Below, in pieces: positions 12,050 through 21,870 of a DNA stretch of 64,000 nucleotides; the first letter of the stretch is position 1; each line of letters begins with the position of its first letter. Source of the stretch: an uncultured Acidobacteriota bacterium. GTDB taxonomy: Bacteria; Acidobacteriota; Thermoanaerobaculia; Multivoradales; JAHEKO01. The notes beneath the pieces are model-generated. The model did not search any database. It had not been told where the DNA came from and saw only the letters and a list, made by a program, of their open reading frames with translations. Made by a program: the position numbers and the translations under genes. The stretch lies in assembly GCA_963713825.1 (NCBI GenBank), contig CAVQNG010000025.1, positions 832,001-896,000 of the forward strand, given 5' to 3'.

Positions 12050-13144
12050 CTATCGGCCTCGCCAGATTTTCCAGCGGTCGATCACCCGATCCCCGCGAAC
12101 CACCACATACTCGTCGAAACAGGCCACCGCCAAGCAGGAGTGCACCGGTGCGATTCGAACCCGCGCTCCGACAGCAAGAGAGCTGTCTACAATGCCGTGC
12201 TCCTGGGAGAGAGAGCTAACGCGGGTAGGTTTCGGCTGCGGGGTAGGCGGCAGGACTTCGAGAATCTTCCCAAAGTTGGCGTCGCCACCGGTTGTGGAGA
12301 GTGCGTCCTTCGATAGAGCGAGTGCTCCCGCGTCGATGACGCTATGGCTGGCCTCCGGTTGACAGGAGACCACGCTTGCGAGGACGGTCACCGCGCAATC
12401 GTCGATACTGCAAGAGCCTAGCTCTGCCTGCATCTGATCGTAGAAGACGTAGTTGCCGGGCCGCATTTCATCGACGCCCGTTAGGTCTGTCACCACCGAC
12501 ATCGTAGGTGTGGATCCCACCGAGACCGACGGGACTTCGATCCCCGATCCTCGAAGTCTCTCGGCAAGCCTGACAAGGGAGGAGCGCTCTTGCTCAGCCA
12601 CCGCCGACAGCTCGGCTCGGGTGCGGGTCTTGTATGCATGGCCGGCGTGGGTCAGAAGTCCATTGAAGCGGAGAGTCGAGGATGCGTCGAGCCTCTGGGC
12701 CAGCTCGTGGGCGAGGGGACCGTCAGGGTCGACTCCGGCCCTGTGGTAGCCGCAATCGACCTTCATCCAGACTCGAAGAGCATGGCCCGATGCCTCGAGA
12801 GCTTCCAAGGTTGCGATCGAGTCTGCAACGAGCCCCAGATCGATTTCGTGGGCAATGTGTATCGCCTCGTCGAGCCGGTTGAGGATGACAGGAAATGCCC
12901 AGGTCAAATCGTCGAAACCATGCTCGGCGAAGACTCTGGCCTCTTCGAGAGTGGAGACCGTCAGGCCGGAGCACCCCAGATCCCTCTGCAGTCGTGCAAT
13001 CTCCAGGCACTTGTGAGTCTTGATGTGTGGACGAAGCCCGACGCCGAGCGCGGCCGCCCGTTCACTCATTCGGCGGAGGTTTCCTTCCACACGGTCCAGG
13101 TCCAGGATCAGTGCAGGGGTGGGAATCTCTTCGAGGGTCTTCAC
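12050..13144 (-). CDS. D-threonine aldolase / D-serine dehydratase (DSD1)-family PLP enzyme
   Basis: Motifs TPALILD, RPHIKTHKC (PLP lysine), RAGV, HAGHAY, GSTPT, EMRPGNYVFYD, DAGALALSKD, LSQEHG. GTG 13144 overlaps the addA stop (GTGA). Confidence 0.87.
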   Translation of the reverse strand: MKTLEEIPTPALILDLDRVEGNLRRMSERAAALGVGLRPHIKTHKCLEIARLQRDLGCSGLTVSTLEEARVFAEHGFDDLTWAFPVILNRLDEAIHIAHEIDLGLVADSIATLEALEASGHALRVWMKVDCGYHRAGVDPDGPLAHELAQRLDASSTLRFNGLLTHAGHAYKTRTRAELSAVAEQERSSLVRLAERLRGSGIEVPSVSVGSTPTMSVVTDLTGVDEMRPGNYVFYDQMQAELGSCSIDDCAVTVLASVVSCQPEASHSVIDAGALALSKDALSTTGGDANFGKILEVLPPTPQPKPTRVSSLSQEHGIVDSSLAVGARVRIAPVHSCLAVACFDEYVVVRGDRVIDRWKIWRGR

Positions 13145-16100
13145 GATCGGGTGTACCTCCTGTCGGCCCAAAGGAACCAGAGCTCGGTATCGGGTCGGCT
13201 CTCGAGGTTCATCGCTCGCTGCACCGCCGCAGCGTACAGGTCCTCTTGCGGGGCATAGGCCTCGGCCCGCGCCGCCAGGTCCTCAGCGGCCTCAATACGG
13301 TCGGTTTTGAAGTCGACGATGATCAGCGCTTTGCTCTCAGGACACCGATAGAGCAGATCGATAGCGCCAGAGTAGAAGCCGGTGGGGCCAGTGTCGTCGT
13401 CCGGTGGTGCCAGAAGCACGGGAATCTCACGTCCCAGCACTGCCTCTTGCAGATCGGTAAATCGTTGCAGCAGCTCGCCGCTGCCGATTCGCTCCAGAAG
13501 CTCGGTTGCCCTTTCAGTGGTAGCGGACAGCTCGCCTTGCGGTGCCGATGTGCTCAGATCTGCAAGTAAGGCCTTGCGTTGCCGCTGCCACTCGGCCTCT
13601 GGTGGCTCCTGTAGATTCCAGGTCTCGAACAGGCGATGGATCAACTCTCCTACCACGCGTGCCCCAGATCGTCGGCCAGCCTCGACCCGAGCCTCCCTGC
13701 CTTCGTCCAGTAGGCGTTCTAGCCGAGCTCCGGCGTCGGACGACATCGAGGACTGGAAGGGTCGGGCCATCCGATGGCCAGCTGCCACCGCCTGATCCGC
13801 CAGCGTCCGCGAGTCGCTCAGGGCCCTCTGTAGCGAGATCGACTGGGAGACCGGTTCGGCTCCTTTGATCTCATCGCCGCTCGAGGCGCCGAGGGCCGGG
13901 AACTTCCACCGTGCAAGTCCGGAGTCCTGAAAGGCGACGCCGTTCTCGAGGCAGTCAGCCGCGAGACGGCCGGGTCGGGTCGGGATGTCGGCTCGATGGG
14001 ACAAGAGATCCAGGTAGGTCTTGGCTCTTTCCGGCGCCGTCTCGGCGAGCTCTTTGGGCCAATTCCCAGCCACGACGAGTCGATCCTCAGCTCGGGTCAT
14101 GGCCACGTAGAGCGTGCGCACGAGCTCGGCGGATTCCACCCGTTGCCGGTGTTCGTCAACCTGGCGAAAGCCGAGCGTCGGACTTCGGAAGAGCACGTAC
14201 TCTGCCGGCTTGCCGGGAATCCATCGCGGGTCCAGGTCGATGGACTGGCGCCGTTTCGGCGGTGGGGAAGCGTGCGCCTGAGCCAGATAGACGTGACGAA
14301 ACTGTAGACCCTTCGCGCCGTGAATGGTCATGACCTGTACTGCATCCAGGACCGCGTCCTCGGGCAGCGCCTCCTTTTCATCCTCGGCTTCCGACACACC
14401 TCGCCTGAGGGACCTCAAGATCGCCTGGATGTCGCCTCCCCGCTCCTCGAGAGAGGTCTCCAGGCGACGGAAGAACCGCTCGAGGTTGGCGAGCCGATAG
14501 TGGCCAAGGTAGCGGGCTGTTTCGGTTACGTCGAACAGGAGTCGTCGGCGCAGTAGCTCCACGAACCGGTCGGGCGGGTCCTGGCGGAAGGATCGACGGA
14601 GGAGAGCCAGGTTGGCGACAGCCTCCTGGACGCTGACCTGCCAATCCTCGATGCTGTCGATCCCCGGTATCGATTCGTCGAGCCCCTTGGCCGCCTCGTC
14701 GATCAGGACCAGGGCCTGATCGAGCCCAGAATCCGAGGGCCCTGCAAGGTCGGTGAGTAGCGCCGGGAAGTCGGTCGCCCAGAGGCGGAGCAATGCAGCG
14801 TCGGGAAGGCCGGCGGTTGCCGAGCGCAGAAATGCCACCACGGCAACGTGATCGACCGGGTGAATGATGGCACGCACCAGAGACGAGGCCTCGATGATCT
14901 CGCGCCGGCGGTAGTATTGCCTGCTACTGCCAACGAGGAAGGGTAGGCCATGATCCCGAAACGCGTCGAGATAGGTCTCCAGGTGGGTCGTGGCGCGCAG
15001 CAGGAGTCCGAAGTCACTCCACGACGCATCAGCCTCGTCATGCAGGCGACGGATGTCACCGGCGATGGCTAGCGCTTCGCACTCGGCCACTGCGTCTGCT
15101 TTGGCGTCGGGCAGCGGAGCCGCGGAGTCATCGCACCTGGGCCAGGAGATCCAGTACTCGACCGCTGCGGGGTCGTTCGCCGTGCTGGAAGAGAAGTCGA
15201 TCGGATCCCGATGCGGGAGGAGCGGCTCGAAAGTGGGCTGCAGGCCTTCGCGGTGGACCATGATGGGATGAAACGCGCGCTCGACCTCCTCCAATACCGC
15301 CGCAGTCGACCGGAAGTTGACAGCCAGTTGGCAGACCTCGGCCCCCTCCCCCTTGGCTCGCTCGACGAACGCATCGAAGGAGGCCAGGTCGGCGTTGCGC
15401 CACCCATAGATGGACTGCTTGGGATCCCCGACGACGAATAGGCCGGGTCGCTTCCCGACGTCCCCTTCCAGAGCCAGGCTTTGAACGATCTCACTCTGCA
15501 GCCGGTCGGTGTCCTGAAACTCGTCGACCAGGAGCTGGCGGAGCCGACCGCGCTCTCGCGCCAGCGCCAGTGAGCCCGGCTTCAAGAGGCGATGCGCTCC
15601 GGCGAGAAGGGACTGGAAGGTGGCTATACCCCTGGCTCGAAGCTCGACCTCCAACTGGGCCATCAGTGGTTGGAGACTGCGGCGCGCCAGATCGAAAAGC
15701 AGTGGGTCGATCTGCAGGAGATGCTTTAGCGTCGTATGGAGCTCGAGAGCCGCTCGGGCGAGGGGCTCTTCGAGGGGCCCGAGGGCCGCACTCTCCGACT
15801 GGTTGAAGCGTCCTGAGCTCCATTCCTGGAGCCGCTTGAGGAGGTTGTCGGTCCACTCGTCAGCGAGAGCGGCCAGAAGGCTCGCCAGAGTGGCTGCATC
15901 GGCATCCTCCGCGGCCGTGGCTGCGTCTCGGCTGTGATCCACGGCAGCGGCGACGGCCAGAGCCAACTTGGAGCGTTTCTGGGATCGAATGGCGGCCCCA
16001 CTAATGTCCTGGAATCGGGCGCAGGTAGTGATCAGGTCCTCGCGAACCCGACGCACCGCCGAGCGATCGAACGGGTCGCGCTCGAGCGCCTGAGCCGTCA

Positions 16101-16794
16101 AGCCCCGGCTGGCCAGCTCGTAGAGGGCGTCGGCCACTTCCTGTGGTCCTTGCCCCAGGGTTGCCAGTCGGGACAGGGGTTCGTCTGGTGAGGTTGAAAA
16201 GGAGCTCTTGGCGGCTGATTCCACGAGCCGATGACAGGTCTCCCTCAGCAGGCGCCCTTCTGCATCGACCTGGAGGTCTGTGGCCAGTCGGGCTTCCAGC
16301 GAGTAGGTCGTGAGCAGGGTTCTGCAGTAGGAGTGGATCGTCCGGATCGTCAGATGGTCCAGCCCACCGATCAGCGCCCGGGCTCGACGCTCGAGGAGGT
16401 CGGTGGAGGGCTCGAATGGAAGCCAGTCCGGACGGAACCAGACCAGCTCGGCAAGATCACCGCCGGCGATCTGCGCCAGGGTTGCGGCGACCCGGTTGGC
16501 CATTTCGGCGGCGGCGGCCTCGGTGAAGGTGATGGCGACCACCCCCTCCAGAACTCGGCGAGCTACGGTCGCCTCGCTGGCCTCGCCTCGCTTGGCAGCT
16601 TCGGGTTCGAGCTCCTCGAGGGTTTGGAGTGCCCCTTCCCAGCCCGGACTGAGGCACCAGGAGAGAATCCGCGAGACGAGGATCGTGGTCTTGCCGGTAC
16701 CGGCGCCTGCCATCACCACCAGGGGGCGATCGAATACCGAATGAGCCGCTCGGCGAGCTCTCTCGTCGCGAACCTGCAAATCACTCGACATCAT
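13141..16794 (-). CDS. addA: UvrD/AddA-type helicase with C-terminal PD-(D/E)XK nuclease
   Basis: Helicase motifs AGAGTGKT, ITFTEAAAAEM, TIHSYC, VDEFQDTD, VGDPKQSIYGWR, NFRS, MTIHGAKGLQF, LYVAMTRA. Nuclease motif GAIDLL...IVDFKTD. Confidence 0.88.
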   Translation of the reverse strand: MMSSDLQVRDERARRAAHSVFDRPLVVMAGAGTGKTTILVSRILSWCLSPGWEGALQTLEELEPEAAKRGEASEATVARRVLEGVVAITFTEAAAAEMANRVAATLAQIAGGDLAELVWFRPDWLPFEPSTDLLERRARALIGGLDHLTIRTIHSYCRTLLTTYSLEARLATDLQVDAEGRLLRETCHRLVESAAKSSFSTSPDEPLSRLATLGQGPQEVADALYELASRGLTAQALERDPFDRSAVRRVREDLITTCARFQDISGAAIRSQKRSKLALAVAAAVDHSRDAATAAEDADAATLASLLAALADEWTDNLLKRLQEWSSGRFNQSESAALGPLEEPLARAALELHTTLKHLLQIDPLLFDLARRSLQPLMAQLEVELRARGIATFQSLLAGAHRLLKPGSLALARERGRLRQLLVDEFQDTDRLQSEIVQSLALEGDVGKRPGLFVVGDPKQSIYGWRNADLASFDAFVERAKGEGAEVCQLAVNFRSTAAVLEEVERAFHPIMVHREGLQPTFEPLLPHRDPIDFSSSTANDPAAVEYWISWPRCDDSAAPLPDAKADAVAECEALAIAGDIRRLHDEADASWSDFGLLLRATTHLETYLDAFRDHGLPFLVGSSRQYYRRREIIEASSLVRAIIHPVDHVAVVAFLRSATAGLPDAALLRLWATDFPALLTDLAGPSDSGLDQALVLIDEAAKGLDESIPGIDSIEDWQVSVQEAVANLALLRRSFRQDPPDRFVELLRRRLLFDVTETARYLGHYRLANLERFFRRLETSLEERGGDIQAILRSLRRGVSEAEDEKEALPEDAVLDAVQVMTIHGAKGLQFRHVYLAQAHASPPPKRRQSIDLDPRWIPGKPAEYVLFRSPTLGFRQVDEHRQRVESAELVRTLYVAMTRAEDRLVVAGNWPKELAETAPERAKTYLDLLSHRADIPTRPGRLAADCLENGVAFQDSGLARWKFPALGASSGDEIKGAEPVSQSISLQRALSDSRTLADQAVAAGHRMARPFQSSMSSDAGARLERLLDEGREARVEAGRRSGARVVGELIHRLFETWNLQEPPEAEWQRQRKALLADLSTSAPQGELSATTERATELLERIGSGELLQRFTDLQEAVLGREIPVLLAPPDDDTGPTGFYSGAIDLLYRCPESKALIIVDFKTDRIEAAEDLAARAEAYAPQEDLYAAAVQRAMNLESRPDTELWFLWADRRYTRS

Positions 16795-19700
16795 CAGGAG
16801 TTTCCATCTCCTGCACGATCGGCCTCGTCGAGCTCGGCAAGTCGCTTCGAGTCCAGAACCCAGATTCCGATTCCACTGCGCTCGGCGCTGGCGGGCTCGT
16901 CGGGTCCGACGACGTAGGTCTCCAGGTGCTCCGCCATCCAGGTTCGCAGACGACCTCGCGCTCCTGAATCGTGCCGCAAGCAGGCTTCCGCCACCTCGCA
17001 GAAGTCACAACGCCGCGGCGCCTTGTCCCTGTCCGCTTCGATGAGGCGAGGCAGGAAGGAGCCCTGTCTCCAAGCATCGATCAGAGTCGAAGTGGCCCTG
17101 TGGAAGGCACGTTGCGCTTCCTCGTTGCCATTGTCGATGCCAATGTCACGAGCCGCTTCCGGGCCTTCGATGTCGGGCTTGAGAAAGAGATATCTGCCAC
17201 GCGATCGCGGTGTTCCTGCGGCCTGAGCATAGGCAATGGCCTGGAGCGACTTACCAGCCCGAATCCTCTTGATCAGGTTCTTTTGGCGCGTGGCGCCGGT
17301 TGCAGCGGTGCTGATGTCGTTCCTGCCGGTCTTGTAGTCGACCAGATTCTCATGGCCGCCATCGATATCCACCCGGTCTGCCCGGAAGTGGAGGTCTTGC
17401 TCTTCGCCGTCTTCGAGGCGCAACGTCAGCCGACCTTCGATCTCCACCGCCACGGTGGGCACTCCGACTCCGGAGGCCCACTCGAGGTGGCAGGCCTGGT
17501 CGAGGTATGGCCTGGCGACTCGTGCGAGCATCTTGGAGAAGCCCCGCATTCCGATGCCGTGCCGGCGGGCCACGAGTTCTGCCTGGCGGTCCAGGAGGTC
17601 GTCGAGTTCCCGGTCGGCGGGCCACTTCACGGTGTGCGGAGCCATGGAGCGAGCTGTCTCGAGGTCGGTGGCTGGAGTTGGTAGCTGAGACCTGACGATG
17701 CGCTCGAGGCAACGGTGGACCAGGTCGCCCACCAGCACGGGGCTGATTCCGGGCAGGATCTCCAGAGGATCGGGGAGGGCCTCGAGCCGCAGCAGTCGCT
17801 CGAGAAACGTCTGCCAGGGGCAGGCTGCAAGGGCCTCGAGGGCAGTGACGTAGAGACGACGCCCGGCCCGCAGGTCCTGGTCGTCGAGAATGGGTCCGAC
17901 GAAGCCGAAGAAGGGACCCAGCCTCCCGAACGTGAGCTCTCCTTCGCCTCCACCCCGGACGGGGTCCAGTTCGCCGAGAACTCGGAGTCGAGCTCTTGCG
18001 AGCCTGTCAGGGCTGGAAATTGCAGGCAGAAGCTCGGCCTGGTCGATGTACTTCCAGTCCACTGGAGTTCTGGTGCTCTCGGCCATCGCTGCGGAGAGGA
18101 AGCCTTCGAGATCCTCTCGAGGTCGCCAAATGGCGGCGTTGACAGCATGTTCGTAGGCCGGTCGGGAGATTCTCGATCCGTTGAATTCGGCTTTCGGCGT
18201 CAGAGTGAACAGGGGCTGGACGGTTGGCGGGTCACGCCATTCTTGGAGATTCTGTGCCGCCTCCGACCAGCGCATTCTCTCGACGAGTGGCGACACGCTG
18301 AGCGGGCTGCCATCGTCGTCGACGCCCTGCCAGGAGAGAGTCACGGCAGGACTGGAGGCGAGGAGCTGCGCGAAGAGGAAGCGCTCCTCTGAGAATCCCG
18401 CGAGCTTTCGGGCGAGGTCAGGCAGGACTCCGTAGCCCTCCCGACTCATCACCTGGCGCAGCGAGTCCGGAAGCAGCGGGTCTTCTCGCACCACCCGTGG
18501 AAAGACTCCCCGATTCAGTCCGGCGACGAAGAGATGCTCGAACGTGCGTCCACGAGCTTCGGTCACATCGAGAACTTGGACGCCGCCGCCGTCGCCGCCG
18601 AGAGAATCGCGGCCGAGCTCTGACCACCCCGAGTCCAGCCACGTCACCAGCTCATCGAAAGTCAGGGGCAGGGTAGCGCGGGTCTGCTCCAGGAGTCGGT
18701 CGGCCGTTCGGTTGAGCACCAGAGCCTCCTCTCCATCAGCCGGCCACTGCAGGTCGTCGAGGAGGAATCCTCTCAGCTCATTGGCGTGTTGCTCGAGTGT
18801 CTTCACCTTGTACCAGCGATCGAGGCGCTGGCAGATTCGGCGCGCTTCGTGCCTTGCTCGTACAACCTCGAGGCCCGGGATCGTGCGGCGCTCCAAGTTG
18901 CGATTCGGGATTCCTTCAGCGTCCTCGTGCTCGGAGAACGTGCCGTGAACGGGCAAGGGGAGGCTGTTGTCCGCCGTGTCCCTGGCAAGCTCGAGATCGG
19001 CCGTTTCCTCGAGCCTCGCGGCGCCGAAGCCATAGAGGGCTAGCTTCAAATCGAAGCTGTCTTTTTCACTCCATGCCAAACTAGCGTCGAGCCAGCGCTC
19101 GACCGGCGCCGAGCTGCCCTGTTTCAGGACGTCCAGGACGGCCCCAACTCGCCTCCCGAACTCGGTTCGCGGTCCGCCAGCACCAATGGCCGAGAACGGA
19201 ATTCCCATGCGCCAGAATTGGGTGCGAAGGATCGAAACATAGGGGTCGAGCTGTCGCGCCACGACACCGATGCTCTCTGGTCTGGCCCCGCCGTCGAGCA
19301 GGAGGCGAATCTGATCCGCTATGTGACGGATCTCGGCTTGACCACCCAGAGATCGAAAGAGTTGTATCGAACCCCGTGGATGACTGGTTGGTTCGATATC
19401 CGCATCTCCAGTAACCAGGAAGAGGCGCTCCTCGAATCGACGGCCGAAAGCGATCCCCTCATCGGTTTCCTCGGGCCACGCCGGGTCGGGAGGTCGGTCG
19501 AGATACAAAATGCCCGGCTTCGCTTCGAGTAGTGCCTGAATCAGGTCGGTCGCAACACCCGTCGCGTCGGCGAATCCGTAAACCAGGACCTTTCTGGCTG
19601 CAACGGCCTCCGGGTGGGCTCGAATCCACTCTGCGGCGTGCCGCATGAGAGAGGAGGGCCTCGTGTCGCCCTCTTCGAAAAGGTTCTCAGCACACCGGCT

Positions 19701-20228
19701 GGCGATCCTGATCAGAGCCCGGGACCGTTCCAGTTCTGCATTGGAGGCCCGCTCGAGGCCCTCCTCTTCCAGGACTTCGTCGATGGCTTCTGCCAGGGCC
19801 GGGTCGAACCCGGCATCCATGAGGTCTTCGATCGGACGCACCACCGAGGTGTAGCCATCATGTAGATGGTCGAGCGAGCGCCGCAGGGAGGGTTCCTGTG
19901 AGGCCAATCGCCGCACCAGAATGGGCAGCAGGTCGGCACCTCCCTGGTCGATCCCTGCGGTTCGAGAAGCGATGTCTCTGGCGATCCCGTAGAGAGTCAG
20001 ACACTGGATCCCAGCCGAGGCCCCTCGCTGATGGGCCACGATTCGGTCCAGGAGATGCAACCGGAGACTTTTCGAGGGGACTACGACCAGAAGGGGCTGC
20101 GCCAGAGCTTCATCGCCGGCACTCTCGAGCTCGTCGTCGAGGTCTGCAAGCAACAGCCGCTCGCAGGCCATGGGTCCACGACCTACCCGAAGTCTGGGCC
20201 TTTGGGCTGGGCGAATCCCTTCGTGCAC
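16794..20228 (-). CDS. addB: AddB-like inactive helicase with PD-(D/E)XK nuclease and Fe-S staple
   Basis: Degenerate helicase motifs, ARGRTFEHLFVAGLNRGVFP, ACPWQTFL, RADRVD...VDYKTG, and CDFC-x5-C (4 Cys in total). TGATG coupling to addA. Confidence 0.8.
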   Translation of the reverse strand: MHEGIRPAQRPRLRVGRGPMACERLLLADLDDELESAGDEALAQPLLVVVPSKSLRLHLLDRIVAHQRGASAGIQCLTLYGIARDIASRTAGIDQGGADLLPILVRRLASQEPSLRRSLDHLHDGYTSVVRPIEDLMDAGFDPALAEAIDEVLEEEGLERASNAELERSRALIRIASRCAENLFEEGDTRPSSLMRHAAEWIRAHPEAVAARKVLVYGFADATGVATDLIQALLEAKPGILYLDRPPDPAWPEETDEGIAFGRRFEERLFLVTGDADIEPTSHPRGSIQLFRSLGGQAEIRHIADQIRLLLDGGARPESIGVVARQLDPYVSILRTQFWRMGIPFSAIGAGGPRTEFGRRVGAVLDVLKQGSSAPVERWLDASLAWSEKDSFDLKLALYGFGAARLEETADLELARDTADNSLPLPVHGTFSEHEDAEGIPNRNLERRTIPGLEVVRARHEARRICQRLDRWYKVKTLEQHANELRGFLLDDLQWPADGEEALVLNRTADRLLEQTRATLPLTFDELVTWLDSGWSELGRDSLGGDGGGVQVLDVTEARGRTFEHLFVAGLNRGVFPRVVREDPLLPDSLRQVMSREGYGVLPDLARKLAGFSEERFLFAQLLASSPAVTLSWQGVDDDGSPLSVSPLVERMRWSEAAQNLQEWRDPPTVQPLFTLTPKAEFNGSRISRPAYEHAVNAAIWRPREDLEGFLSAAMAESTRTPVDWKYIDQAELLPAISSPDRLARARLRVLGELDPVRGGGEGELTFGRLGPFFGFVGPILDDQDLRAGRRLYVTALEALAACPWQTFLERLLRLEALPDPLEILPGISPVLVGDLVHRCLERIVRSQLPTPATDLETARSMAPHTVKWPADRELDDLLDRQAELVARRHGIGMRGFSKMLARVARPYLDQACHLEWASGVGVPTVAVEIEGRLTLRLEDGEEQDLHFRADRVDIDGGHENLVDYKTGRNDISTAATGATRQKNLIKRIRAGKSLQAIAYAQAAGTPRSRGRYLFLKPDIEGPEAARDIGIDNGNEEAQRAFHRATSTLIDAWRQGSFLPRLIEADRDKAPRRCDFCEVAEACLRHDSGARGRLRTWMAEHLETYVVGPDEPASAERSGIGIWVLDSKRLAELDEADRAGDGNS

Positions 20229-20237
20229 AATGTCGCT

Positions 20238-20266
20238 ATGCGAGCATGCCGACAGGGCACTGTCAA
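20238..20266 (-). promoter_or_regulatory. Putative sigma-70 promoter of addBA
   Basis: Minus strand TTGACA (20266-20261), 17 nt spacer ending in TGC, then TCGCAT (20243-20238), which ends 9 nt before the GTG at 20228. Confidence 0.55.
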
Positions 20267-20568
20267 TAGAGACTCTCTATCCGGAGCACCGTACGGACAA
20301 GATTGGTGGCAAACGGTCGATCGCCTCTCACCTGAGCGTCGAGACTAGATGGCAGAAGGACAGTGGCCATTGGGACCTCGTTGCATCTCGGATCCCACGT
20401 CTACGGTCCGGCTTCTGGGACAGCTGAACGCTGCCAGATACTAGCTCAGATCGAGCCAGGGAGAGGATCTGATGCCAGTCGAGAGATCCTGAATGAGGCC
20501 CTGACCGTGTAGGCTTGATGTAGGCTATGGCGAGGCTCTGAGGGTTGACCGGGCCGAGAGAGGAGACC

Positions 20569-21870
20569 ATGGGGGAGCTGATACTGATCGTAGACGACGA
20601 GCCGGGCATCCTGACCGCGCTGGCCGGCGTCTTGAACGATGAGGGATACGAGACGGCCTGCACCCAGAGTGGGGAAGAGGCTCTGACTTTGTACGAGGAA
20701 CAACACCCGGCGGTCGTCTTTCTCGATATCTGGCTGCCCGACCGGGATGGGCTGGAAACACTACAGGCTCTCCGGGAAGCGGACCCGGCGGCCGCCGTGG
20801 TCATGATGTCGGGACATGGCACGGCCTCGACGGCTGTCAAAGCGATCAAGATGGGTGCCTTCGACTACGTCGAAAAGCCCATCTCCTACAACCAGGTCGT
20901 GGATAGCGTAGTGGGCGCTCTGAAATATCGTCAGTCTCTTGCCTCCGATGCTTCACTTCTGAGCTCCCTGGAGCGGACGAAGACCCGGCTCGACCAGGAA
21001 CGAAATCTGACGCCGGCACCGGAGCTGCCCCTGCTCCAAGAGGGTACACAGCCTCAGCGCACCATCCATAAGAGCGTTGTCTTATACGGTCTCGGCTTGC
21101 ACTCGGGTCGTCGGACCGGAATGGCCATCCAACCGCTACCCCCGAACAGTGGCATCCACTTCGTTACGCTACCCGCCAATACCCACATCCCGGCGTTTGT
21201 CGGCGAGGTCGCCGAAACCGACTACGCCACGACGGTCTCCAGCAACGGCGACAGCATCCGGACGGTGGAGCATCTGCTGTCGGCGCTGCACGCCTATGGC
21301 GTTACCAATCTACTGATCAAGGTGCATGGGGAGATCCCGGTTCTGGACGGCTCGGCGCTGGAGTTCTGCAAGTCGCTGGAGGATGCCGGAGTCGAAGAGC
21401 AGAACGAGCCACGCAAGGAGCTCGTCATCGATCGCCGCTACGAGGTCGGGGACAACGAAGAGAAGGTCTTGTCGGTGGAACCTTCCGACGATTTCTCGAT
21501 TTCCTATCGGCTGAGCTATCCGCCTCCCGTTGGGGAGCAGTCCTTCGACTTTCGCCTCACGACCCCTCAGCAGTACAGACAGGAGATCGCACCGGCCCGA
21601 ACTTTCGGGTTCATGCGTGACATGAAGATGATGAACGAGCTCGGACTGGCTTCGGGTGGAAGGCTGGACAACTGCATTCTGGTCGGTGAGGACAACGTGA
21701 TCAACACAGAGCTTCGATTCGCGGACGAGTTCGTCAGGCACAAGATTCTGGACATCATTGGGGACCTCTACCTGTTGGGCTATCCGATCCGAGGACGGGT
21801 GACCGCTCAGCTGACCGGGCATCGCAATAACATCGCGCTGCTGCGTACGATTCAGGAGGCCAACGTCTGA
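20569..21870 (+). CDS. lpxC: Receiver domain-LpxC fusion (UDP-3-O-acyl-GlcNAc deacetylase)
   Basis: N-terminal REC domain (IVDDE, LDIWLP, MSGHG, YVEKP). It is followed by QRTI..GLGLHSG, TVEHLLSAL, EIPVLDGSA, IAPARTFGF, HKILDIIGDL and GH. RBS AGGAG. Confidence 0.92.
   Translation: MGELILIVDDEPGILTALAGVLNDEGYETACTQSGEEALTLYEEQHPAVVFLDIWLPDRDGLETLQALREADPAAAVVMMSGHGTASTAVKAIKMGAFDYVEKPISYNQVVDSVVGALKYRQSLASDASLLSSLERTKTRLDQERNLTPAPELPLLQEGTQPQRTIHKSVVLYGLGLHSGRRTGMAIQPLPPNSGIHFVTLPANTHIPAFVGEVAETDYATTVSSNGDSIRTVEHLLSALHAYGVTNLLIKVHGEIPVLDGSALEFCKSLEDAGVEEQNEPRKELVIDRRYEVGDNEEKVLSVEPSDDFSISYRLSYPPPVGEQSFDFRLTTPQQYRQEIAPARTFGFMRDMKMMNELGLASGGRLDNCILVGEDNVINTELRFADEFVRHKILDIIGDLYLLGYPIRGRVTAQLTGHRNNIALLRTIQEANV

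Follow-up and report, generated by a model that had tools for sequence, protein, structure and literature searches.

The subject of this report is a gene in which the receiver domain (REC) of a two-component response regulator and a complete LpxC, the UDP-3-O-acyl-GlcNAc deacetylase of lipid A synthesis, are encoded as one chain. The gene, here called REC-lpxC, lies at 20569..21870 on the + strand of a 64,000-nucleotide stretch of DNA from an uncultured Acidobacteriota bacterium (genome G000; contig CAVQNG010000025.1, or C25, positions 832,001 to 896,000). By 'the window' we mean this whole stretch, and coordinates without a prefix refer to it. The receiver appears to descend from a transcriptional regulator of lpxC, and the kinase of that regulator survives in fused genomes that have mostly lost the regulator itself. 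We consider it probable that the enzyme has come under direct phospho-control in place of an earlier two-component control of lpxC transcription, with the orphaned NtrY-like kinase as its partner. LpxC catalyses the committed, rate-setting step of lipid A synthesis and is an antibiotic target, and most of what is known of its control concerns E. coli and its relatives.

A receiver domain within the LpxC chain

REC-lpxC is a single uninterrupted open reading frame (ORF) that ends at 21870 and could begin with a TTG (20545) or an ATG (20569), from which it contains 433 codons and a stop. The ATG is the likely start, because it is preceded by a purine-rich, Shine-Dalgarno-like AGAGGAGA (20559..20566, +, read from the sequence) and because homologues begin at the aligned Met. 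An earlier, sequence-only reading of the window had described one frame joining a receiver to a complete LpxC, and Pfam places both domains in the 433-aa product. The receiver (Response_reg, PF00072; residues 5-113, 20581..20907) scores 103.9 bits against a cut-off of 30.2 (E 6.9e-30), and the LpxC domain (PF03331; residues 163-429, 21055..21855) covers model positions 1-267 of 268 with 296.3 bits against a cut-off of 27 (E 2.9e-88). The NCBIfam equivalog for lpxC, TIGR00325, is also matched above its cut-off (248.9 against 187.25 bits), and the LpxC part aligns with solved LpxC chains from P. aeruginosa, E. coli and A. aeolicus (E 2.9e-51). Between the Pfam boundaries are about forty-nine residues, where the sequence-only reading had counted about forty. 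This linker (residues 114-162, 20908..21054, from alignment and AlphaFold2) sits where longer relatives carry an AAA+/HTH_8 module.

The receiver is of the NtrX/NtrC type. Its best NCBIfam match is an NtrX model, NF051870 (106.3 bits against a cut-off of 600, in the receiver region only), and the solved structures that match it best are the Brucella NtrX receiver entries 4d6x and 5m7n. The AAA+ (PF00158) and HTH_8 domains of such regulators gave no match in the Pfam scan of the REC-LpxC protein (P0001). By homology, REC-LpxC is a descendant of NtrX/NtrC-type sigma54 regulators and not a member of that class.

The motifs on which the sequence-only reading relied are all in place. In the receiver (all codons on the + strand), they are the acidic pair of D9-D10-E11 (D9-D10 at 20593..20598), the predicted phospho-acceptor D53 of L52-D53-I54-W55-L56-P57 (20725..20727), the switch residue S81 of S81-G82-H83-G84 (20809..20811), and the conserved lysine of E102-K103-P104 (K103 at 20875..20877). 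We take D53 to be the phospho-acceptor from its place in the receiver fold. In the enzyme, the motifs aligned to the solved chains are GLHSG, vEHL, TFGF, HKxLDxxGD and GH, and residues H178, E234, H235, T345, H391, K392, D395, D399 and H418 match their counterparts there. E234-H235 (21268..21273, +), aligned to 'vEHLl', would supply the general base and a Zn ligand, H391-K392-x-x-D395-x-x-x-D399 (HKxxDxxxD; 21739..21765, +) further Zn ligands, and H418 of G417-H418 (21820..21822, +) the catalytic His. These roles are presumed by homology with the E. coli and A. aeolicus enzymes.

In the AlphaFold2 model of REC-LpxC (pLDDT 84.3, pTM 0.81), the alpha5 helix (residues 107-136) extends beyond the receiver and is followed by a predicted disordered tether (137-155). 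A complex prediction of residues 1-136 against 156-433 returned a score of 0.00 and a mark of 0.32, which count neither way on docking between the two parts. Within the LpxC part, pLDDT is only 51-56 at residues 351-380 (21619-21708) despite well-conserved sequence; this stretch could be a mobile element of the substrate tunnel.

The receiver quintet (D9, D10, D53, S81 and K103) is invariant in 121/121 fused proteins, as it is in thirty of thirty diverse fused genes that span 46-100 per cent identity. On the enzyme side, H178, E234, H235, T345, H391, K392, D395 and D399 are likewise invariant in 121/121, and H418 is replaced once, by Asn (120/121). Mean column identity across the 121 proteins is 0.84 in the receiver, 0.83 in LpxC and 0.54 in the linker. 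By these measures, the receiver and enzyme active sites are both intact and under constraint. It is very improbable that the receiver is a vestige without signalling, kept as a structural appendage or a constitutive dimerisation module. Such a fate has a precedent, since the AAA+ and HTH modules inherited from that ancestor did decay (described below), which means that parts of a fused regulator can become dispensable. This receiver is conserved like the enzyme it is attached to, its quintet is unchanged across several phyla, and pseudo-receivers typically have lost these phospho-residues.

A chimera of two genes, created in assembly or gene calling, is an explanation that we regard as ruled out. 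Among the matches listed from ENA, JGI, NCBI and Logan, all 120 homologues (428-462 aa, 69-97 per cent identical, named only LpxC in their source records) contain both Pfam domains, and independent contigs cross the junction. One from DNA run X2 (1985 nt) spans 20300-21425 with three differences, and one from RNA library X16 (470 nt) spans 20697-21166, from the receiver through the linker into LpxC, with seven. Near-identical sequence is present in at least fifteen DNA runs from at least eleven studies, in sediment-type metagenomes. RNA runs X16-X20 cover only small shares of the stretch (11/30 bins in X16 and 8/30 in X18).

The pairing of Response_reg with LpxC, for which the sequence-only reading had suggested an architecture search, is widespread and conserved. 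Among forty-one related genomes (including G000), thirty-four have a match across both domains with no stops; G005, G008 and G010 have contig-end fragments, and G027 and G031 have unfused LpxC only. In G002 (84 per cent complete) and G036 (94 per cent), the fused-protein query gave no LpxC-level match, the family model not having been checked there. Forty-one of the 151 genomes sampled from the class carry the fused form, of which seven also carry an unfused lpxC. (These tallies include the unpublished genomes G006, which is fused, and G044, G135 and G164, which are unfused; all claims made here hold without them.) The short fused form occurs in named records labelled Thermoanaerobaculia, Thermoanaerobaculales, Holophagales, Acidobacteria, 'Terriglobia', Candidatus Binataceae and 'Deltaproteobacteria', and the ESM Atlas lists seventeen clusters with the same domain pair.

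REC-lpxC is the only LpxC-family match in G000 (5.42 Mb, 96.4 per cent complete), which answers the question of a second lpxC raised with the sequence-only reading, and the genome has matches to LpxB and LpxD at other loci. With a sole LpxC match and both of these enzymes present, lipid A synthesis must pass via REC-LpxC. It is the genome's working LpxC, with predicted deacetylase activity.

Relationship of the receiver to sigma54 regulators of lpxC

Apart from short forms, a search of 1.84 billion representatives yielded proteins in two size ranges, 650-736 aa and 483-505 aa, that end in the same type of LpxC. Twenty-two retrieved proteins were scanned with Pfam. Seven are REC-AAA+(-lid)-LpxC, three of them with weak, decayed AAA+ matches (P0134, P0142, P0146); P0126 alone of the seven also has HTH_8 (REC-Sigma54_activat-AAA_lid-HTH_8-LpxC) and carries the JGI name 'NtrX'. 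One is REC-HTH_8-LpxC (P0137), two are REC-spacer-LpxC (P0139, P0148) and four are short REC-LpxC. Six show AAA+/lid-LpxC with no receiver (P0153, P0160, P0161, P0163, P0164, P0209) and could be gene calls truncated at the N-terminus on short contigs, or another architecture. The remaining two are one LpxC alone and one unrelated protein. Source names place these proteins in Nitrospinota and Candidatus Entotheonellia.

In alignment, the long forms follow the free regulator collinearly from the receiver by way of AAA+ and lid to HTH before continuing into LpxC. The long REC-AAA+-LpxC proteins (P0124, P0126 and L114:127-2331) have lost the GAFTGA loop, which contacts sigma54, and kept Walker A (GExGxGK); the free NtrX-like regulator keeps GAFTGA. 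In the long forms, the AAA+ module may serve for oligomerisation or may be in decay. The Thermodesulfobacteriota record L114 holds an undivided 734-aa ORF of this type. Four Desulfomonile/Thermodesulfobacteriota genes that had been considered unfused members of the fusion clade are of the same long REC-AAA+-LpxC form.

Phylogenies were quick IQ-TREE runs, with SH-aLRT as the only support. In the LpxC-domain tree, all forty-six receiver-carrying sequences form one clade (SH-aLRT 100), to which the kinase-linked, unfused lpxC group of the class itself is sister (SH-aLRT 92). In the receiver tree, built from 128 columns, the thirty fused receivers form one group (SH-aLRT 89) apart from the other receivers of G000, and join thirty-two kinase-adjacent NtrX-like receivers (SH-aLRT 84). 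The fused and NtrX-like receivers share I14, I/V21, D24, W55, S81-G82-H83, E102 and L105-S106, at which the paralogues differ; these residues lie at the switch and on the surfaces of alpha1 and beta5-alpha5. The S-G-H triplet is shared with the NtrY-adjacent NtrX-like receivers (Ser in 32/32, Gly in 32/32 and His in 29/32), the paralogues having mostly T-A-Y/F. Because of the long and intermediate forms, the trees and these shared residues, we conclude from sequence comparison that the fused receiver is descended from a sigma54 regulator of the lpxC-controlling type.

Unfused members of the class show what such a regulator is linked to. In G031 and G027, which belong to the same order and have unfused lpxC, the top-matching homologue of the fused receiver is encoded at a distance of 3-4 kb from lpxC. 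The gene order is lpxC, DUF4390, a kinase of 740-748 aa (HAMP-PAS-HisKA-HATPase) and a REC-AAA+-HTH_8 sigma54 regulator, with SelB next in G031. Kinase neighbourhoods from sixty further genomes were tabulated by tblastn. lpxC lies directly upstream of the NtrY-like kinase in 22/24 unfused-only genomes and in 7/7 genomes with both forms, and the NtrX-like sigma54 regulator comes next after the kinase in 23/24 and 7/7, respectively. The exceptions among the twenty-four are G179, with lpxC about 5 kb upstream, and G058, which has neither gene by its kinase. A DUF4390 gene was detected between lpxC and the kinase in most such clusters. Linkage of lpxC to a kinase is not confined to the class, since eight of sixty-three loci from other lineages have a histidine-kinase match within 1.5 kb downstream of unfused lpxC (e.g. 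L135, L137, L152, L154 and L165, from Bacteriovoracaceae, Methylomirabilota, 'Deltaproteobacteria' and Ca. Acidoferrum records).

Promoters follow the same division. With a criterion of our own (TGGCAC-N5-TTGCA, at least 9/11 positions, GG and GC fixed, 400 nt upstream), a sigma54 -24/-12-like element was found upstream of 22/29 unfused lpxC genes, mostly at 30-60 nt, against a background of 0.0175 sites per 400 nt. No such element was found in the 400 nt upstream of any of thirty fused genes (0/30), among them REC-lpxC, whose 5' intergenic region is 20229..20568 (+).

The clusters and sigma54 elements agree with published lpxC control in D. vulgaris, where lpxC is the one target mapped for the NtrC-type regulator DVU2934 (Rajeev et al. 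2011, PMC3333781). That paper also notes orthologues in Acidobacterium capsulatum and, for S. fumaroxidans, a regulator operon with lpxC immediately upstream. The clusters also fit the link between NtrYX and lpxC/LPS (lipopolysaccharide) levels in R. sphaeroides, where loss of NtrYX alters lpxC mRNA and LPS (PMC7240162).

Seven genomes, six of one genus plus G101, carry the fused gene along with the full ancestral cluster. In G057, the fused gene, kinase and regulator are accompanied by a dead unfused LpxC-like frame (L046:7725-8678, -), which is still open and lies upstream of DUF4390 and the kinase. It carries the substitutions H178L, H235Q, T345W, K392G, D395Q and D399C, matches only positions 1-182 of the Pfam model, and is 31 per cent identical to the unfused LpxC of a neighbouring genus, the adjoining DUF4390 being 76 per cent identical. 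It has the look of an ancestral lpxC that fell into decay once the fused copy had taken its place.

The orphaned kinase and predicted phospho-control of LpxC

None of the twenty-one histidine-kinase matches that our query gave in G000 falls within the window (C25:832001-896000), in agreement with the sequence-only reading, which had seen no cognate kinase there and had suggested looking for a co-evolving NtrY-like one. Such a kinase is encoded outside the window at C25:431208-433415, about 420 kb from REC-lpxC, and is adjoined by a DUF4390 gene (C25:433471-433929). The locus continues with YqeY and SelB; it has no regulator, and lpxC is not upstream. The kinase has the layout HAMP-PAS-HisKA-HATPase and a weak NtrY_N match (21.7 bits against a cut-off of 23.2). 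We use 'NtrY/NtrX-like' throughout as a label given by architecture, neighbourhood and best match.

An ortholog of this kinase is present in 141 of the 151 genomes of the class. Thirty-two genomes are fused-only, and with G175 excluded because of a contig end, the NtrX-like gene is absent from the kinase locus in 29/31. The typical locus in these genomes is DUF4390-kinase-(YqeY)-SelB. By comparison, 30/31 genomes with an intact unfused lpxC keep the NtrX-like gene. Six independent contrasts on the kinase tree associated regulator loss with fusion in a mean of 5.2-5.7 cases and never against it (sign test, median p 0.06 and 0.03). In the regulator-less kinases the phospho-acceptor His of the H-box is kept in 28/28 aligned, and the AHEIKNPLTPIRL..AER helix is unchanged relative to other kinases (33/33). 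No ortholog of the NtrX-like regulator was found in G000.

In three loci (L117, L119 and L120) a kinase match lies immediately upstream of REC-lpxC itself. Two of these records are titled Candidatus Binataceae and one 'uncultured delta proteobacterium'. Among the ORFs listed, the gap from kinase to REC-lpxC is 40 nt in L117 and 85 nt in L120, and the L117 kinase has the HAMP-PAS-HisKA-HATPase layout by Pfam. The co-evolving kinase is thus present, and in Binataceae-type loci it directly precedes the fused gene.

DUF4390 stays with the kinase after loss of NtrX (L012, L013, L055-L083 and G000:C25:433471-433929), and may act with the kinase as its partner in the periplasm. In locus L067 of G058, the unfused lpxC lies 145 kb from the kinase, and the DUF4390-kinase pair has no adjoining regulator.

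The nearest sigma54 regulator to NtrX in G000, at C1:316026-317426, belongs to a separate orthologous group. We considered whether it is NtrX moved elsewhere and rejected this: its AAA+ domain is 49 per cent identical, compared with 54-68 per cent for true orthologues, and in 5/5 genomes tested its own orthologues (52-68 per cent) occupy separate loci, with NtrX the second-best match. Of the paralogues of the NtrX-like regulator, this C1-type one is the closest; it was conserved in 5/5 relatives tested, coexisting with NtrX in each. It has no adjoining kinase, and the gene directly upstream of it encodes a DegP/HtrA-like protease (Trypsin_2-PDZ; the pair spans G000:C1:314379-317426, or L186:4380-7424); it may be an envelope-stress regulator.

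The C1-type regulator bears on a different assignment of partners, in which another kinase or acetyl phosphate phosphorylates REC-LpxC and the NtrY-like kinase serves a regulator such as that at C1:316026-317426. The lack of a kinase beside the C1-type gene favours this assignment, as do its place as closest paralogue of NtrX, with a receiver 48 per cent identical to that of the G031 NtrX-like regulator, and the separation of fused gene and kinase in 30/30 Acidobacteriota fused loci examined. We nevertheless think it unlikely. The C1-type regulator coexists with NtrX in five of five genomes and so presumably has its own partner there, and NtrX loss tracks the fusion. The fused receiver keeps the NtrX-like signature of alpha1 and beta5-alpha5, which the C1-type lacks at D24 and W55, and the kinase adjoins REC-lpxC in L117, L119 and L120.

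The proposal of the sequence-only reading, that a histidine kinase acts directly on LpxC, is strongly supported by this comparative evidence, and each computational check suggested with it gave a result in its favour. The analysis establishes the architecture, its conservation, its descent and its genomic association with the kinase; phosphotransfer by the kinase, and the sign and mode of its effect on the enzyme, are inferences. REC-LpxC would be a response regulator with the enzyme LpxC as its output. An ancestral NtrY/NtrX-like system, made up of a HAMP-PAS kinase, a DUF4390 partner and a sigma54 activator, would have driven lpxC from a sigma54 promoter. The regulator gene would then have fused to one lpxC copy, and the AAA+ and HTH modules of the fusion would have decayed and later been deleted to leave REC-linker-LpxC. 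In the window's lineage, the free regulator and the unfused lpxC would afterwards have been lost. The regulator-less kinase (C25:431208-433415) would now phosphorylate D53 of REC-LpxC, and this would switch deacetylase activity and so set lipid A flux post-translationally.

As a guess at the sign, phosphorylation would relieve inhibition and raise LpxC activity. We guess this because the ancestral regulator was an activator, and a kept sign would allow a seamless hand-over in genomes with both systems; the layout of receiver, tether and hydrolase is also, by analogy, that of CheB. In CheB, the unphosphorylated receiver blocks the active site of the hydrolase. The long alpha5 helix and disordered tether predicted here would equally suit a dimer switch of the kind found in NtrC1 and DctD.

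The chief competing explanation is that the receiver is functional and controls the amount or location of LpxC (phosphorylation exposing or hiding a degradation signal, or altering oligomer state or membrane association) rather than catalysis, as a counterpart of FtsH/LapB control in E. coli. We regard this as possible, though improbable. The best-studied control of LpxC is proteolytic, as PMC3333781 also states. The LpxC part ends at position 272 of 297 in TIGR00325, and so has no tail like the C-terminal degron of the E. coli enzyme, and the predicted long helix and tether would suit dimerisation or an adaptor switch. On the other side, no conserved adaptor or protease gene accompanies the fused gene, and the neighbours glgA and the AddB-like gene recur only in close relatives.

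Several points weigh against direct control of the enzyme by the orphaned kinase. In G000, the kinase is about 420 kb from REC-lpxC, so the pairing of kinase and receiver rests on association and descent. The C1-type receiver is as similar to NtrX (48 per cent) as the fused receiver is (47 per cent), and the C1 regulator could be the partner of the kinase instead or as well. G057 and G129, of one genus, carry the fusion yet keep the NtrX-like gene, and G058 has an unfused lpxC but neither regulator nor lpxC by its kinase, so the regulator can be lost or relocated without fusion. The contrasts were taken on a tree of kinases rather than of species, and with fewer than six no significance could be reached. 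The grouping of fused and NtrX-like receivers is moderately supported (the SH-aLRT of 84 comes from a quick tree of 128 columns), and the paralogue outgroups are almost all from G000. The sigma54 threshold was our own, and 7/29 unfused genes have no site. No curated NtrX/NtrY model reaches its cut-off (NtrX 106-478 bits against 600); the term 'NtrX-like' used by the sequence-only reading therefore holds as a best model match and not as family membership. Last, loss of NtrYX in R. sphaeroides raises lpxC mRNA 8.8-fold, the opposite sign to that guessed above, an effect that the authors call indirect (PMC7240162).

A broader statement, that several phyla were rewired from sigma54-dependent lpxC transcription to phospho-control of LpxC by an envelope-facing NtrY-like kinase and DUF4390, which would set lipid A flux within seconds, seems to us evenly balanced. 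If direct control is correct, phosphorylation of a receiver built into the enzyme would be a new mode of control for LpxC, and a named candidate sensor kinase with an uncharacterised DUF4390 partner would link an envelope signal to LPS flux. As a two-component system whose direct output is a core enzyme of envelope biosynthesis, it would be the first known. The genomes would also preserve an unusually complete natural series from transcriptional to post-translational two-component control, whose surviving intermediates include the full regulator-LpxC fusion, forms with AAA+ decay, an HTH-only form, genomes with both systems and a dying unfused lpxC. REC-LpxC proteins are predicted to be soluble two-domain enzymes, in which this control is directly testable, and we expect interest from the fields of LPS regulation and two-component signalling.

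Comparison with known systems and flanking genes

No title or abstract on a receiver-LpxC fusion was found in literature searches, whose scope excluded subscription-only papers, and a 2025 review of lipid A regulation (PMC12444477) does not contain the words 'receiver', 'fused' or 'fusion'. Response regulators made of a receiver and an enzyme are already known, and there is one report of two-component control of lpxC transcription. As far as we searched, what appears to be new in print is a receiver built into LpxC, its descent from an lpxC regulator, and the orphaned kinase.

The reported case, DVU2931/DVU2934 of D. vulgaris, is a two-component system acting on lpxC, with an operon pattern like the lpxC-DUF4390-kinase-regulator clusters of this class (PMC3333781). 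There, DVU2934 binds DNA upstream of lpxC, whereas here the receiver is within the LpxC chain, and the AAA+ and HTH domains and the sigma54 promoter are absent. The likeness to the regulators of this class is one of description.

NtrY/NtrX of alphaproteobacteria (Brucella, Rhodobacter, Caulobacter) resembles the system described here in its kinase layout and, through the Brucella structures 4d6x and 5m7n, in its receiver. It differs in that the curated cut-offs are not reached here, and in that the free regulator of this class keeps GAFTGA and sits with sigma54 promoters; alphaproteobacterial NtrX is reported to be without GAFTGA.

CheB, PleD/WspR, RpfG and RssB are regulators that combine a receiver and an enzyme in one chain, as REC-LpxC does. 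CheB is closest in layout, with an N-terminal receiver, a flexible linker (here the predicted disordered residues 137-155) and a C-terminal hydrolase. The likeness is a mechanistic analogy, homology with REC-LpxC being limited to the receiver. The outputs also differ: those of the CheB kind are signalling or adaptation enzymes, while LpxC is a metallo-amidase that works in biosynthesis, in an envelope pathway that is essential.

E. coli LpxC is controlled by FtsH/LapB/YejM proteolysis, which differs in mechanism and components from the control proposed here. The DUF3413 domain of YejM was not found in G000 (96 per cent complete). The LapB zinc-ribbon model PF18073 has a single match in G000, and it also matches 10/14 control genomes, Gram-positives included. 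In LpxC-FabZ fusions (NF009667), a pathway enzyme is added C-terminally, unlike the N-terminal signalling domain of REC-LpxC, whose LpxC part scores 215 bits against that model and does not reach its cut-off of 465.

No operon partner is conserved beside the fused gene in the loci compared among relatives: glgA lies 3' of it in L004-L007 and L104 only, and an AddB-like gene 5' in L004 and L005 only. In the window, the flanking genes are unrelated to envelope or signalling. REC-lpxC is followed 3' by genes for glycogen synthase, a GCS2 ligase and an E1 dehydrogenase. Directly 5', on the opposite strand, is an AddAB-like pair (13141-20228, -), two large adjoining genes of 1217 and 1144 aa whose products are a UvrD-type helicase that bears a PD-(D/E)XK nuclease domain and another PD-(D/E)XK protein.

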